From the IMG/VR virus record IMGVR_UViG_3300050821_014397: a DNA stretch of 20,000 nt, one strand, 5' to 3'. This DNA is from an uncultured virus (IMG/VR IMGVR_UViG_3300050821_014397) (Duplodnaviria > Heunggongvirae > Uroviricota > Caudoviricetes). A program made the position numbers and the translations under genes. Positions 3,306 to 18,466 of this stretch are shown one piece after another (position 1 is the first letter of the stretch; each line of letters begins with the position of its first letter). The notes beneath the pieces were generated by a model that was given only the letters and a program-made list of their open reading frames with translations, did not search any database and was not told the DNA's origin.

Positions 3306-3343
3306 AAAAAAAGGCGGCGGAAGCACAATAGGCTCCGCCGCCT
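3306..3343 (-). terminator. Intrinsic terminator immediately upstream of the portal SD
   Basis: Stem AGGCGGCGGA (3312-3321)/TCCGCCGCCT (3334-3343). A7 at 3306-3312 gives a U-tract on the - strand. Confidence 0.8.
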
Positions 3344-3364
3344 GCTAAAACAGTGTCATCGCAC

Positions 3365-3396
3365 TTACAGGTTCGATTCTACACCAAACCTGCAAT
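3365..3396. promoter_or_regulatory. Operator-like inverted pair TTACAGGTT-N13-AACCTGCAA flanking a leftward -10 (TAGAAT, 3376-3381)
   Basis: Directly visible. The same AACCTGCA motif recurs in other intergenic gaps. Confidence 0.6.
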
Positions 3397-5996: not shown

Positions 5997-6391
5997 TGCC
6001 CCGCTACCCCAAGCAGCCGCTCGAGGACAAGCTCGCCTGGATGCGCGACCGGCAGAACCAGAAGAAGGCCGAGGAGGATCTGCGCGCCAGGGAGGAGACC
6101 CGGCGCGCGCAGGTAGCCAGCGGGGCATCCTCCCCGGCGGAGGCCATACTGCGCGATCTGCTCCAGACCCTGGCGGCGCAGCGCCAGCCGGTGCGACCGG
6201 CACCGGCGGTGACGCGGCAGATGCTGCGCGTCGGTCAGGTGGCGGAGATCCTGTCGGTCTCGGCCCGGACGGTGCAGCGCTGGTTCGCCGACCGGGCCGT
6301 CATCGTCCAAGGGCCTACCAAGACCACCATGCTGATCCCCCAGCAGGCCCTGGACGACTGGTTGCGCGAGCATGCGCCGAAGGTCAGTTGA
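5993..6391 (+). CDS. Excisionase-like HTH protein (recombination directionality factor candidate)
   Basis: C-terminal MLRVGQVAEILSVSARTVQRWF...IPQQALDDWL has the MerR/Xis-type HTH pattern; the 3' end overlaps the integrase 3' end. Confidence 0.75.
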   Translation: MMPRYPKQPLEDKLAWMRDRQNQKKAEEDLRAREETRRAQVASGASSPAEAILRDLLQTLAAQRQPVRPAPAVTRQMLRVGQVAEILSVSARTVQRWFADRAVIVQGPTKTTMLIPQQALDDWLREHAPKVS

Positions 6392-7661
6392 CGCTCGCGG
6401 CTTCCGCCGAGGCGCAGGCTTCGGCGAAGTTCGCGGCCTGCTTGGCGGCGGCCTGCCGGTTCTCGACGGCTTCCTGCATGCCGAGCACGTAGGGCGCGTA
6501 ATACTTCTGGGTGGTGGCGATGGTGCGGTGGCCGAGCATGCGCCGCACGTCCTCGAGCGAGAGGCCCAGGTTGAGCATGTTGACCGCGAAGGAGTCGCGG
6601 AAGCGGTGCGGGCGCAGCGAGCCCTCGATCCCGAGCAGCACGCCCAGCTCGCGCAGCGGCGTGTCGAGCGCGATCTTCAGGTAGTTGTTGTGATCCTTGC
6701 GGGAGCCGTCGAAGAACGGATACATGCCCGCGCCGGGCTGGCTCGGATCGCCGCGCCACTTGAGGCAAGGCAGGGCGCGCAGCCGGTCAACCAGCGCCTG
6801 GGGCAGGAAGCAGACCACCTCATCGCTGGTCTTGACCTGCGCGGTGATGTATCTGCCGCCATGCCGCGTGTTCACGATCCAGTCGGGGCGGAAGATGAGG
6901 GCGTCACTGCGGCGCAGCCCGGTCTCGTACATCAGCCACAGCATGGTGAGGAAGGTGTCGGGGTGGCGGAGGAGCGGGTTCCCCCGGCGGATCTTCTGGC
7001 GGGGCAGCTGGCCGCGCACGAAGGCCGGAACGGCTTCCTGAATGCGCAGCCAGTTGGCGTTGCCCTTGCGGTCGAGCGGCAGGGTGGCAATGCCTTTGTC
7101 CTGCTTCTTGCCCGCCATGATGTCTTCCTTGGTCAATTTCTTTTCGGTGATCGCCTCGACCGGCTTCCAGGGGTTCTTGACGAGGTCGTGAAAATTCACG
7201 CAGTAGTTGAAGAGGCACGAGGTGTACTTGCGCCAGTTATGGATCGTGTTCAGGCTCTTCTTCCGCCAGCCCTCCTGCAGCTCGTTGAGGTGCTGGCTGG
7301 TGACGTCCTTGACGAAGACCACGCCCTTGGCGGTGAGCGGTTCGATCAGCACGTGCTTGACCGAGGAGTAGGCCTGCCATGTGGGCGAGTCCTCGACATA
7401 CCTCCCTTGCCCCAGCCAGAGGTTGTAGGCGTCGATCAGCTTCAGAGCCTCGGGCTCCTCGGGGGCCTCCTTCCTGGGCGGCCACTCGGTGACCTTCTCG
7501 AGTTCGATTACCCTGGCTTCGGCGGCCTGCCGGGTGAGCTTGTCGACCTTACCATAGCGGTCGTAGACGGCGATGTTGATCGTGTGGCGCTTGATCTTCA
7601 CGCCCATGTTATTCTTTCCCTCGACGTGATACCAGGGGCCTCGGATCTTCAGTTTCAGCAT
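6384..7661 (-). CDS. int: Tyrosine recombinase / phage integrase
   Basis: Catalytic set R (ETGLRRSD), K (VKT), HxxR (HRFRD), LGH, Y (KYYAP). Start ATG 7661 (MLKLKIRGPWY) with AAGGGAG SD preferred over 7706. Confidence 0.93.
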   Translation of the reverse strand: MLKLKIRGPWYHVEGKNNMGVKIKRHTINIAVYDRYGKVDKLTRQAAEARVIELEKVTEWPPRKEAPEEPEALKLIDAYNLWLGQGRYVEDSPTWQAYSSVKHVLIEPLTAKGVVFVKDVTSQHLNELQEGWRKKSLNTIHNWRKYTSCLFNYCVNFHDLVKNPWKPVEAITEKKLTKEDIMAGKKQDKGIATLPLDRKGNANWLRIQEAVPAFVRGQLPRQKIRRGNPLLRHPDTFLTMLWLMYETGLRRSDALIFRPDWIVNTRHGGRYITAQVKTSDEVVCFLPQALVDRLRALPCLKWRGDPSQPGAGMYPFFDGSRKDHNNYLKIALDTPLRELGVLLGIEGSLRPHRFRDSFAVNMLNLGLSLEDVRRMLGHRTIATTQKYYAPYVLGMQEAVENRQAAAKQAANFAEACASAEAASVN

Positions 7662-7926
7662 CAAAATCTCCCTTGCTTGCCGGACGTTTCTCGTCCAACG
7701 AGCCAATCCTACCAGGATCTGATGCTGAAAACAAGCTACTTATTGCTAGCAAGCAAGAACGTCTTGTTCTGGAACCTGCAATTAAGCGCCTATGCCTTAT
7801 TGATTCTACGGCTTAAGGCGTATCTTACATCACACGCAAAAACTACAAGAGTGACTGGTTCTTCAAACTTGCTGGACAAATTTTAGCCAAAAGGGAGAGA
7901 CGTGTCTTATTTGGGTAGGGCTGGGT
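7662..7926. other. AT-rich integrase leader / candidate attP region
   Basis: Non-coding, visibly lower GC than its flanks, several short inverted repeats, next to int. No tRNA-like core identified. Confidence 0.45.
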
Positions 7927-8175
7927 CTAGTCGAAGTCCTTCGACTCCTGGCGCGCGATCCCGGCGTTGGCCCACATCACGCACTCCTCGAGCTTGGTCA
8001 AAGCGAGCGACCGCTCGCGCCGGTCGGGGCACAGCTCGACGATGAGGAGGGCGAGCGCCTTCGCCTGATCGCGGAGCTTCTGATAGCGCGCAGGCTGATC
8101 GCCCTTCGGTGCGTGGAACGTGAAGTCGCCCTCGATCCGCTCCACGAGCATCTTGTCGGTGGCGCTGAGTGGCAT
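7927..8175 (-). CDS. Acb2/Tad1-like helical-hairpin protein (putative cyclic-nucleotide signal sponge, anti-defence)
   Basis: 82 aa; FTFHAPKGDQ...CPDRRERSLALTKLEECVMWANAGIAR resembles the SRExxxALTxxEExxMW hairpin of Tad1/Acb2-domain proteins. Confidence 0.75.
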   Translation of the reverse strand: MPLSATDKMLVERIEGDFTFHAPKGDQPARYQKLRDQAKALALLIVELCPDRRERSLALTKLEECVMWANAGIARQESKDFD

Positions 8176-10942: not shown

Positions 10943-10948
10943 TAAACT
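10940..10948 (+). promoter_or_regulatory. Possible extended -10 promoter (TGaTAAACT)
   Basis: TGnTAnnnT match overlapping the upstream stop codon. Confidence 0.4.
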
Positions 10949-11009
10949 GTAGTGCGATGGATCGTTTCGTTTCCGTTGTCGTTGTCAGTAACCCGGTTTG
11001 ATAGGGTGA

Positions 11010-11054
11010 GCGCCGGGCTCGTTCTCCCTTGCTCGGGTCCGGCGCGTTTTCTTT
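11010..11054 (+). terminator. Intrinsic terminator immediately upstream of the SD of the 11068 gene
   Basis: 12-bp stem GCGCCGGGCTCG/CGGGTCCGGCGC (2 GU pairs), then GTTTTCTTT, then GAGGG SD. Confidence 0.75.
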
Positions 11055-11067
11055 GAGGGCGCGTTAG

Positions 11068-13224
11068 ATGGGCTTCTTCTCTCCGTCTCCGGCGACCAGC
11101 ACCAGCACCTCCAGCAGTACGACCAACTACACCCCTTCACCGGCGATCCAGGGCCAGTGGAACGATATCACCGGCACCGCCTCGGGCCTCGTCACCGGCC
11201 CCGGCGGCATCGTCAACAACTACCAATACCCGGGCCAGATGGTCGCCAACCCGAGCGACCTGATGAATCAGTACTGGAATCAGGCGGGCTCGATGGGAGC
11301 CAACGCTCCCAACATGCAGCCGTACCAGCAGCAGATGACCGGGTACGGCTCGCAGCTCGCGGGCACGCAGGTCGATCCCAATTCGATCAACCTGCCCGGC
11401 TATAACCCGCAATCGTTCCAGCCCGGCCAGCTGAACCTGCCGCAGTTCGGCGCTACGCCCAACGTCACCGGCACCACCGGGCCGAGCGGCCTCGCCTCTT
11501 CCTATCTGGTCAACCCGGGGCAGGTGCAGGCACCGGCGGCCTATACGCCGCAACAGGTGCAGGCCATGAATGTCTCGGCACCCGGCTCGGTCAATCCGAT
11601 CACCGGCGTGCCCAATGTCAGTGCGCCCCAGCTCCAGCAGTATCAGATGAACCCGAACGCGTACCAGCCGGTGAGCGCGCAGGGCCTGCAGAACTTCACC
11701 ATGCAGGCGGCGGGCAACGTGGCACCGACGGGCCTTGCGAGCACGCAGAGCTTTACCGACCCGGGCGTGGCGCAGCAGTACATGAGCCCGTACACGCAGC
11801 AGGTCGTCAACAGCCAGCTCGCCCAGGCTCAGGTGCAGGAGCAGCAGCAGCTCCAGCAGCAGGGCGCGCAGGCGGCGCAGGCCGGGGCCTTCGGCGGATC
11901 GCGCTCGGCGGTGGAAGCCGCCAACACGTCCATCGGGTATCAGCAGCTGGCCTCGCAGATCCAGGCGCAGGGTCTGCAGAGCGCGTATCAGCAGGCCCAG
12001 CAGCAGTTCAACACGCAACAGCAGGCGGGCCTGCAGGCGCAGCAGTTCAACATCGGCACCGGCCTCCAGGCGCAACTCGCGAACCAGCAGGCGCAGCAGC
12101 AGGCCAACGTGCAGAACCTGTCGGCCTATCTGCAAACGCAGGGCCTCGGCGCGCAGACCGGCCTCCAGGCCCAGCTCGCCAATCAGCAAGCCGGTCTCTC
12201 GGTCGGACAGCAGAACCTGCAGGCCAACCTCGCCACGCAGCAGCTGGGCGCAACCACCGGCCTGCAGGCGGCGCTCGCCAACCAGTCGATGTCGTACCAG
12301 CAGCAGCTGGCCAACCAGCAGGCGCAGGAGTTCGGCTACGGCCAGCAGCTGCAGGCGGGCCTCGCCAATCAGCAGGCGGGCCTGCAGGCGCAGGGCATGA
12401 ATCAGTCGGCGGGCCTGCAGAGCGCGCTCGCCAGCATGGGCTATCAGTACGGCGCTTCGCAGGCCAACGCGGCCAACCAGCTGCAGGCCGGGCTTGCCGC
12501 GCAGCAGCTCGGCTACCAGGGCTCGCAGTTTAATGCCCAGCAGATGCAGCAGGCGGCGCTGGCCAATCAGGCCGCGCAGATGCAGGCGCAGGGCATGACC
12601 TACCAGGGCGGCCTCTCGGGCGCATTGCAGACCCAGAACCTGGGCATGCAGGGCCAGATCCAGGGCGGCCAGATGGGCCTGCAGAGCGCGGCCCAGCAGA
12701 ACCAGCTCCGGCAGTCGCAGCAAAACCTGAACATGGGCGCGATCCAGGGCGCGGCGGGCCTCCAGCAGCAGGCGGGAATGCTCGGCATGCAGGGCTACCA
12801 GACCGGCCTGCAGGGCCTCAATGCGCTGCAGCAGGGCGCGACCTCGAACCAGGGCTACAACCAGCAGGTGGCCGACGCGGGCTATCAGCAGTGGATGAAT
12901 TCCCTGACACTGCCGCTGCAGGGCCTGGGCGCGCTCGCGCAGCTGACCGCCATGCAGCCGCTCCCCTACACCATGAACCAGAGCGGCACCTCGACCGGCA
13001 CGCAGATGCCCGCCCAGGCCTCGCCCTTCAGTCAGATCCTGGGCGGCGCGTTCGGCGGCCTGGGCGCGGTGGGCAGCCTGTTCGGACGCGAGGGCGGCCT
13101 CGCCGAGAACCTGCCCGAGCTGAAGGCGAAGAAGCCCCGGAGCAAGCGCACCGGCCTCGCCGCCGTCGTCGCCATGCCCCAGGCTCCGGCCTTCCAGCGG
13201 CACGGCCTCGAGCGGGCGGCCTGA
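11068..13224 (+). CDS. Gln-rich DNA ejection/pilot (internal virion) protein
   Basis: 718 aa; N-terminal MGFFS-S/T-rich; YMSPYTQQVV and AGAFGGSR motifs; repeated GLQAxLANQQA; Gly-rich hydrophobic segment near the C-terminus. Confidence 0.75.
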   Translation: MGFFSPSPATSTSTSSSTTNYTPSPAIQGQWNDITGTASGLVTGPGGIVNNYQYPGQMVANPSDLMNQYWNQAGSMGANAPNMQPYQQQMTGYGSQLAGTQVDPNSINLPGYNPQSFQPGQLNLPQFGATPNVTGTTGPSGLASSYLVNPGQVQAPAAYTPQQVQAMNVSAPGSVNPITGVPNVSAPQLQQYQMNPNAYQPVSAQGLQNFTMQAAGNVAPTGLASTQSFTDPGVAQQYMSPYTQQVVNSQLAQAQVQEQQQLQQQGAQAAQAGAFGGSRSAVEAANTSIGYQQLASQIQAQGLQSAYQQAQQQFNTQQQAGLQAQQFNIGTGLQAQLANQQAQQQANVQNLSAYLQTQGLGAQTGLQAQLANQQAGLSVGQQNLQANLATQQLGATTGLQAALANQSMSYQQQLANQQAQEFGYGQQLQAGLANQQAGLQAQGMNQSAGLQSALASMGYQYGASQANAANQLQAGLAAQQLGYQGSQFNAQQMQQAALANQAAQMQAQGMTYQGGLSGALQTQNLGMQGQIQGGQMGLQSAAQQNQLRQSQQNLNMGAIQGAAGLQQQAGMLGMQGYQTGLQGLNALQQGATSNQGYNQQVADAGYQQWMNSLTLPLQGLGALAQLTAMQPLPYTMNQSGTSTGTQMPAQASPFSQILGGAFGGLGAVGSLFGREGGLAENLPELKAKKPRSKRTGLAAVVAMPQAPAFQRHGLERAA

Positions 13225-17972: not shown

Positions 17973-18012
17973 AAAAAAAATAGGGGGTGGCTCACCCGGT
18001 GAGCTACCCCCT
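17971..18012 (-). terminator. Intrinsic terminator, U-tract on the - strand
   Basis: 14-bp stem AGGGGGTGGCTCAC/GTGAGCTACCCCCT with A10 at 17971-17980; positioned to end the RHH transcript. Confidence 0.8.
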
Positions 18013-18029
18013 GACAAGGAGAACGAACA

Positions 18030-18161
18030 ATGCCTCCTCTGGGCAATTACGCACAGCAACAACAACAGCCCGGCCAGCAGACGCAAGGTGCCCCCAGCGC
18101 ACCGCCTCCGCAGCCGCTTCCACAGAATGGCCCCGTCCCGCGCGGTCCCCAGCCGCGCTAG
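18030..18161 (+). CDS. Small Pro/Gln-rich peptide (43 aa)
   Basis: AAGGAG SD 8 nt upstream; MPPLGNYAQQQQQPGQQTQGAPSAPPPQPLPQNGPVPRGPQPR; shares a CTAG with the convergent RHH stop. Confidence 0.5.
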   Translation: MPPLGNYAQQQQQPGQQTQGAPSAPPPQPLPQNGPVPRGPQPR

Positions 18162-18466
18162 GCGGCCTGCCCCTTCTGCTTGTCGAGTTCATGGGCGAGG
18201 CGCACCGCCGAACGCGCAATGGCGTGCAGCCGCCGGATGCGGTCCTGCATGGGGCTGAGCTTGCGCACGGGCTTCAGGTCTTCCTCCTGATCGAGGCGCT
18301 GCCGGATGAAGGCGCGCAACAGATCGCCGTAAGAGTAGCCGGGACGTTCCACTCGCGCCCTCTCGAGAAGCACGGTCAATGCCCGATAATCGTCCCCCGA
18401 CACCAGCACACTGATCTGCTTGGAGGAACGGAACAGCTGTGGACGTCCCTGCATGATGGCTTTCAT
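18158..18466 (-). CDS. Ribbon-helix-helix-like transcriptional regulator
   Basis: KQISVLVS strand followed by two helices (DDYRALTVLLER...SYGDLLRAFIRQRL); start ATG 18466 preferred. Confidence 0.6.
   Translation of the reverse strand: MKAIMQGRPQLFRSSKQISVLVSGDDYRALTVLLERARVERPGYSYGDLLRAFIRQRLDQEEDLKPVRKLSPMQDRIRRLHAIARSAVRLAHELDKQKGQAA

Follow-up and report, generated by a model that had tools for sequence, protein, structure and literature searches.

Complementarity between a late-leader terminator loop and the integrase ribosome-binding site of an uncultured temperate phage

The phage contig and its terminated leader cassettes

The window, i.e., the whole stretch of 20,000 nucleotides analyzed here from the virus record IMGVR_UViG_3300050821_014397, is part of a 48.6-kb phage contig which encodes a portal, a terminase, a xis-like HTH protein, a tyrosine integrase, and an Acb2/Tad1-domain protein, and we read this uncultured phage as temperate. 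A 67.6-kb contig encoding the same integrase (Int) is on record; our analysis covers 48.6 kb, so that about 19 kb of the phage lies outside it. The contig (G000:C412) was placed in the bin of a 6.5-Mb genome, the Hfq of which looks to be of the alphaproteobacterial type, whereas all Int homologues found in named genomes (8 of 8) belong to Acidobacteriota, and the bin is therefore probably not the host. A member of the Acidobacteriota is the likely host, and the contig appears to be mis-binned. To our knowledge, the phages of this phylum are almost unstudied.

The int gene (positions 6384 to 7661, minus strand) encodes a 425-residue tyrosine integrase (PF00589, phrog_1). Upstream of it, a candidate promoter, TTGTTT-17-TAGGAT with a TG extension, was inferred from the sequence at 7706 to 7734 on the same strand. 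The neighboring Acb2/Tad1 hairpin-domain gene (7927 to 8175, minus strand; PF24729, E value 1e-20) probably encodes a cyclic-nucleotide sponge, and genes of this kind lie near int or virion genes in many relatives. The palindrome CAGGT(T/A)-N13/14-AACCTG is present in three intergenic regions (3368, 17251, and 18505), with half-sites at 7773 and 8805, and might be a phage operator. No tRNA marking attP was found near int in the seven sources inspected, and none was seen in this phage; tRNA-like 3' halves, identified by eye, adjoin int upstream in G005 and G004 and downstream in G007, and they probably represent attP cores.

On the plus strand, 125 nt separate genes 9425 and 11068, and this interval is arranged in the order TG-n-TAAACT, 8 nt, ATG, upstream open reading frame (uORF), hairpin, and U-tract. 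The candidate -10 element TAAACT (10943 to 10948) is preceded by TG, as in an extended -10, and from it we infer a promoter at this position; no good -35 element was found for it, and it is not among the promoters listed by the consensus scan. The hairpin of the intrinsic terminator (11010 to 11045) has 12 bp, including two G-U pairs, and is computed to be unusually stable (z = -3.4, with none of 200 shuffles equally stable). Its loop has 12 nt (11022 to 11033), of which 11023 to 11033 are the seed complementary to int, and the U-tract TTTTCTTT follows at 11047 to 11054. The terminator folds at -24.6 kcal/mol on the plus strand versus -16.2 kcal/mol on the minus strand, and the G-U pairs together with the U-tract favor an RNA made from the plus strand. 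The predicted terminated leader RNA would thus have about 98 nt (10957 to 11054; the fold of 10955 to 11054 has z = -2.8). Immediately after the U-tract comes the Shine-Dalgarno (SD) sequence GAGGG (11055 to 11059) of the gated gene (11068 to 13224), whose 718-residue, Q/A/G-rich product has homologues of 51 to 63% in related phages and no Pfam or PHROG match; judged from context alone, it is probably an internal virion or DNA-ejection protein. An Rfam search of the window returned three matches with E values up to 5, none of them within 10943 to 11067 and none near the gathering score, and according to the covariance models the leader RNA is not a member of c4 or any other Rfam family.

A second cassette of promoter, short leader, and terminator lies directly before the portal gene (3310 to 3390, minus strand; hairpin z = -4.2). 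It carries a 4-codon uORF in a layout of -10 element, 50 to 60 nt, and terminator, and it shares with the first cassette a TTTGAGGG end and a TGTA(A)GTGCGATG start. By eye, the portal gene is also preceded by a -10 element and a terminator in 8 of 16 relatives, with unrelated leaders, and short terminated late leaders are therefore a trait of this phage group. In the contig, the three copies of the motif CTGTA-N1-4-TGCGAT, at 3370 (minus), 10947 (plus), and 18511 (plus), each lie upstream of a probable virion gene of the same orientation; shuffled sequences (100) contain zero or one copy of this motif, which was defined post hoc and is possibly a late-promoter element.

Two complementary sites in the integrase mRNA

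As the original prediction had noted, TCTCCCTTGCT occurs twice in the window, at 7667 to 7677 and 11023 to 11033, both times on the plus strand. Since int lies on the minus strand, its mRNA has AGCAAGGGAGA ahead of the ATG, with 5 nt (TTTTG) in between, so that the sense of the motif is opposite in the leader and int transcripts, in agreement with what antisense pairing requires. The duplex of the loop with this ribosome-binding site (RBS), referred to here as site 1, has -20.1 kcal/mol.

Repeated 11-mers are ordinary as such (500 distinct ones in the window), and in 15 of 200 shuffles the loop 11-mer finds at least two matches with at most one mismatch. The position of the match is what sets it apart. 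Among the 58 called RBS windows of the phage, the loop matches 11 nt at int and 6 nt at the next best. An 11-nt match was seen at none of 758 RBSs from 12 related phage records, at none of 307 from 400 kb of the Acidobacteriota genome G019, and, with 11 to 12 nt, at 3 of 5,612 in the binned genome, whose untranslated regions (UTRs) served as a background set only. Random 12-nt loops built around an anti-SD core reach 11 nt on some RBS of this phage in 0.22 to 0.41% of cases (200,000 trials per core). The arrangement AGCAAGGGAGA-N3-9-ATG was found 83 times among the matches listed, in 67 of 401 Acidobacteriota genomes, which gives a rough estimate of 6e-5 per gene; when the loop is extended, 19 of its 43 matches elsewhere stand before a start codon and are thus often real RBSs. 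The 16S rRNA tail of G019 is the standard CCTCCTTT. If whole terminator RNAs of about 95 nt are considered instead, matches of at least 11 nt are no more frequent within the own genome (3 of 60) than across genomes (28 of 640), and since such matches are less rare, the case hinges on the placement of loop against SD. Genes and starts were called with a simple codon-score caller, and some starts are wrong (those of the portal and of int in several relatives), with a slight effect on the RBS set. On these grounds, the match between the loop and the int RBS is real and beyond chance.

The seed costs only 1.5 kcal/mol to open. Among the 58 phage RBSs, with opening costs included, the proposed int target came out first, with a net energy of -14.8 kcal/mol. 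Net binding to int amounts to -15.3 kcal/mol for a transcript starting near 7700 and to -13.3 kcal/mol for longer ones, the next loop target having -8.1 kcal/mol. A full 11-bp helix within a 12-nt loop is topologically strained and probably requires opening of the top of the stem. With an accessible seed, a translation initiation region as target, and a match beyond chance, the element resembles trans-acting small RNAs (sRNAs), and Hfq is present in both Acidobacteriota genomes tested. The SD of the 18030 peptide, for which near-complementarity had also been predicted, fares differently: the complementarity exists only with a bulge and two stem bases, the loop alone gives -9.4 kcal/mol, and only -5.3 kcal/mol are left after opening costs, so that we do not retain it as a target. 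We likewise set aside a hidden RBS on the minus strand of the loop, which has no start codon downstream, and a wobble version of the seed, hinted at by cofolding in the G/U-rich 5' domain, for which int ranks third to fourth among the 58 RBSs and 4 to 15% of control UTRs score equally.

Further features of the int leader concern the accessibility of its RBS. A transcript from the candidate promoter is predicted to start near 7700, and its RBS would then lie behind a 5' hairpin and be fairly open (5.2 kcal/mol). An inverted repeat detected by folding (7653 to 7730, minus strand; 7720 to 7730 with 7653 to 7663) masks the SD and AUG only in transcripts begun upstream of about 7731, where opening costs rise to 8.4 to 10.6 kcal/mol; the RBS is also buried in the int genes of several relatives that have an SD. 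Insertion sequence transposases are likewise shielded from outside promoters, and the inverted repeat, acting in read-through transcripts, resembles this protection. Farther upstream, a cis segment (7751 to 7762, minus strand) is complementary to the int RBS over 12 pairs (-18.6 kcal/mol) and agrees with the loop region in 13 of 16 positions, as read from the printed sequences. Taken with the inverted repeat, this segment suggests an int leader built for repression at the RNA level.

The int mRNA contains a second complementary site, GGCAAGGGAGG, at codons 84 to 87 (7401 to 7411, minus strand), which forms 11 pairs with the loop, the two terminal ones being G-U (-19.1 kcal/mol). When both strands of the 48.6-kb contig were searched and the hairpin's own complement was excluded, the two best loop duplexes (-20.1 and -19.1 kcal/mol) were both in the int mRNA, and the third reached -17.6 kcal/mol. 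The chance of such a site per 1.3 kb is 0.003 in related phages and 0.010 in G019; under synonymous recoding, it is 0.001 for the nine codons and 0.0025 for the whole gene. Recurrence of a gene's own SD 11-mer, in seed-compatible form, within its own coding sequence was found in 0 of 252, 0 of 96, and 8 of 2,620 control genes (8 of 2,968 overall), and in 1 of 25 genes of this phage, namely, int. All differences between the two sites are A-to-G changes in site 2, which are tolerated through G-U pairing, and the codons of site 2 are nonpreferred ones (CAA, 11%, and AGG, 6% phage-wide). It falls in an indel-tolerant loop of Int; relative to the seven closest of 25 aligned homologues, this loop has two additional residues (GR), and its length varies among more distant ones. 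The site is poorly accessible, costing 7.8 kcal/mol to open. An internal start at this position was rejected, since the sole ATG is out of frame and separated from the SD by just 1 nt. About ten tests, including the failed one on the 5' wobble copy, had preceded the post hoc detection of site 2, and the statistics of this site should accordingly be discounted roughly tenfold. The joint chance of sites 1 and 2, as the product of the two rates and before forking paths, is about 1e-5 to 4e-5 per loop.

Leader uORF, alternative fold, and conservation in relatives

The original prediction had overlooked a possible explanation in cis for part of the loop, which combines a uORF with an alternative helix. 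The leaderless uORF MDRFVSVVVVSNPV (10957 to 11001, plus strand) has 14 codons, six of them for Val and four of these in a row, and a second stop follows at 11002 to 11004. Given the ATG, a Val run of this kind has a shuffle P value of 0.0006, with criteria set after the uORF had been seen, and run-bearing uORFs occur at 4 of 1,532 other terminators, none of which also has a -10 element that would render the uORF leaderless. The 5' strands of the alternative, antiterminator-type helix lie at 10991 to 11012 (10991 to 10996 with 11033 to 11038 and 11003 to 11012 with 11020 to 11029), and within it 7 of the 11 seed bases are paired in cis. In the nascent RNA up to 11040, this helix has -20.5 kcal/mol versus -10.0 kcal/mol for the partial terminator. 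With a ribosome at codon 7 or earlier, or with none, the fold keeps -20.5 kcal/mol and 13 cross pairs; with a ribosome at the stop, no cross pairs are left, a loss which is partly by construction of the calculation. Later stalls (Val8 to Val10; codons 9 to 11) give a weaker alternative helix (-12.5 versus -10.0 kcal/mol). The helix has a P value of 0.025 when the upstream part is shuffled and is not significant in shuffles of the whole region (z = -0.87), which lends the cis explanation weak support as far as the helix is concerned.

The leader thus has the short ORF with a run of regulatory codons that a ribosome-dependent attenuator needs. Gene 11068 shows no sign of supplying the sensed amino acid, its product being 3.5% Val, and a comparable uORF with helix was found at none of 198 terminators in 12 related phage records. 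Of 19 Acidobacteriota ilvB loci examined, with one locus left out, 6 have visible attenuator-type leaders upstream of the gene, and five of these, which served as positive controls, behave in the same calculation as the phage leader does. The distance from uORF stop to hairpin is 8 nt in the phage versus 22 to 34 nt in these controls. The Acidobacteriota leaders (L433, L435, L436, L440, L444, and L452) consist of Ile/Val/Leu-rich leader peptides and terminators before ilvB, and a literature search gave no description of ilv attenuators in Acidobacteria.

When we inspected related phages for the element, four relatives were found to carry the C terminus of 9425, with gene 11068 adjacent in three; the junction consists of 14 nt in L004, 10 nt in L226, and an unrelated 85 nt in L006, and the element is absent from all three. 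A BLAST search of 401 genomes gave no homologue (best E value 0.002 over 28 nt), and neither did three viral pattern scans and INPHARED. A single-sequence covariance model run on 77 sources (1.0 Mb) recovered only L119, which had been preselected by its similar pattern, and on 151 genomes it gave two weak matches with no evident uORF or U-tract match. Two look-alike hairpins were rejected, as the one in L106 lies within an ORF and the 5-kb record containing that of L119 gave no integrase match. Among 39 terminator-bearing int loci (of 46 with a called start), a trans loop match of at least 10 nt was present only in this phage, in a survey where most contigs are short and starts are automatic; no family-wide loop-to-RBS signal was found among related phages and int loci. 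The relatives are distant (51 to 63% for gene 11068), so that absence from them indicates a recent element rather than an inert one.

By eye, the int genes are leaderless, with no SD to target, in 5 of 11 related whole records, and the layout TAnnnT, 6 to 8 nt, and ATG is found upstream of several int genes of this group. Int homologues of 58 to 74% identity include P0002 to P0006 and P0009; among them P0002 (74%), available as protein only, has an N-terminal extension (...QQAREIL...) compatible with a similar RBS. No prophage with the C terminus of 9425 was found in the 401 genomes by a search run without a positive control.

Possible roles of the leader RNA

The original prediction held that the leader RNA may double as a trans-acting sRNA which silences the integrase. 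The second site and the accessible seed strengthen the statistical side of this proposal, while conservation does not bear it out, as the element has no homologue and the relatives lack it. We regard repression of int in trans by the terminated leader RNA as evenly poised between right and wrong. In this mechanism, a lineage-specific cassette of promoter, short leader, and intrinsic terminator would front the probable ejection-protein genes; transcription stopping at 11054 would keep these genes off and release an RNA of about 98 nt, whose loop would seed on the int RBS with 11 bp in vivo and block 30S loading. A second contact of the loop at codons 84 to 87 would further lower Int synthesis, and read-through would depend either on the Val-rich uORF or on an antiterminator of the phage. 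Both the direction of the effect, from leader to int, and its sign are what we infer. The roughly 19 kb beyond the contig could contain a better target for the loop.

The leader might instead act purely in cis as a ribosome-dependent attenuator, which we consider possible at a rather low probability. A ribosome at the uORF stop would mask 10991 to 11012 and let the terminator form, whereas a stall at the early Val codons, or no translation, would allow the alternative helix and read-through into gene 11068; the resemblance of the loop to an anti-SD would then come from its pairing with AGGGUGAG, and the int matches would be incidental. This account draws on the rarity of the Val run (P = 0.0006 given the ATG; 4 of 1,532 control terminators comparable, none leaderless) and on a fold that switches with ribosome position like those of the five ilvB leaders. 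It has to reckon with an alternative helix at P = 0.025 and a whole-region z of -0.87, with the small difference at the Val8 to Val10 stalls (-12.5 versus -10.0 kcal/mol) and a stop effect partly built into the calculation, and with post hoc uORF criteria and a Val-poor downstream gene, to which no supply-and-demand logic applies. It also leaves site 2 and the full 11-nt RBS match unexplained, the null model having already fixed the anti-SD core. A plain late-leader terminator is somewhat unlikelier still. The late leader of phage lambda (pR'/tR', 6S RNA) consists of a promoter and a short terminated leader before the late genes and is subject to Q antitermination, and we know of no targeting of int by it. 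The layout of our leader fits this model, although an antiterminator gene, which a terminator of this type would need, was not identified in the 48.6-kb contig. The portal-gene cassettes of this phage and, judged by eye, of 8 of 16 relatives, the TTTGAGGG end and start motif common to both cassettes, the recurrence of C/U-rich loops (8 of 32 long loops in the loci examined), and the lack of conservation all agree with it, the loop being then a generic C/U-rich one and the int matches and the uORF being then chance products of a large scan. The joint chance of the two sites (about 1e-5 to 4e-5 per loop before forking paths) speaks against such an origin, as does the portal-cassette loop, which has no comparable target.

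Two further accounts appear improbable. In one, GCAAGGGAG would be a binding site for a protein (Int, Xis, or a repressor on DNA, or an RNA-binding protein), with no RNA-RNA pairing. It is present in three same-strand copies (7410, 7676, and 11032), AGCAAG/CTTGCT occurs 4 times in the 275-nt region upstream of int versus 25 times in 48.6 kb, and short direct repeats are found directly upstream of int in relatives; yet the third copy, lying 3.4 kb away, falls exactly in an RNA loop, the motif is transcribed in opposite senses at int and leader, and site 2 departs from site 1 just by changes that G-U pairing tolerates. In the other, which we rate marginally lower, the int leader would bind nascent 11023 to 11033 in trans, break up the alternative helix, and favor termination, so that the ejection genes would be off in cells expressing int. 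Blocking 11023 to 11033 does shift the nascent fold from the alternative helix (-20.5 kcal/mol) to the terminator stem, but fast cotranscriptional binding by a probably scarce mRNA would be needed, and the position of the target at the RBS would have no reason.

Repression of int in trans and the ribosome-sensing switch in cis could also be joined in one dual-function attenuator, a combination that we put forward only tentatively and to which we assign a low likelihood. With healthy translation, the uORF would be read through, transcription would terminate, and the released RNA would silence int at two sites, one of which would have arisen via an in-frame insertion in Int; stalled ribosomes would turn the virion genes on and free Int for excision.

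Known systems offer partial parallels. According to PMC6614838, rnTrpL (RcsR1) of Sinorhizobium meliloti is a 110-nt RNA from a terminated short-ORF leader which acts as attenuator in cis and by base pairing in trans, the apical part of its stem-loop 1 pairing with the trpD coding sequence, and it is conserved across genera. Compared with rnTrpL, our leader is alike in being an attenuator-released RNA predicted from sequence to pair in trans, and it differs in that its seed is a terminator loop, its targets are the RBS and coding sequence of a phage integrase, and it is not conserved. The c4 antisense RNA of P1/P7 (PMC12197685) has loop sequences which pair around the RBS of the antirepressor mRNA; a phage RNA, loop-placed sequences, and a regulatory mRNA of the same phage contacted near the RBS are likewise predicted here, with the difference that a terminated late leader and int are involved and that no such Rfam family matched the window. 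The branched-chain amino acid leader-peptide attenuator of ilvBNC in Corynebacterium glutamicum (PMC11857589) and the ilvB leaders share with our element a near-leaderless Val-run ORF and a U-tract followed by the gene, and their overlapping antiterminator and terminator have a candidate counterpart in it, whereas a Val-poor phage gene stands downstream here, with no biosynthetic operon and no conservation. The leader RNA belongs to none of the rnTrpL, c4, and ilvBNC families.

Literature searches, in a collection with few subscription journals, listed no case of an integrase repressed in trans by an sRNA and none of phage late genes controlled by a leader-peptide attenuator. If our preferred reading, repression of int in trans, is true, this phage would encode a trans-acting RNA that controls its integrase and derives from a late-gene leader, without a gene of its own, and prophage stability would be tied to virion-gene control, possibly through the translation status of the host. 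If the dual-function reading holds, nutrient status, morphogenesis, and prophage recombination would be linked through a single RNA. Site 2 suggests a general screen for phage SD 11-mers which recur both in the gene's own coding sequence and in a terminator loop.

Other possible antisense arrangements were noted as well. The minus-strand transcript of the 100-residue gene at 18158 to 18460 would end at the terminator at 17985 to 18014 and be antisense to the whole 43-codon ORF at 18030 to 18161, including its RBS. In G003:C1, a terminator-proximal stretch near 57036 to 57140 (plus strand) is perfectly complementary over 23 nt to the beginning of the gene that ends at 56387, and this stretch may represent either an antisense RNA or a duplicated gene start, left uncalled, on the opposite strand.
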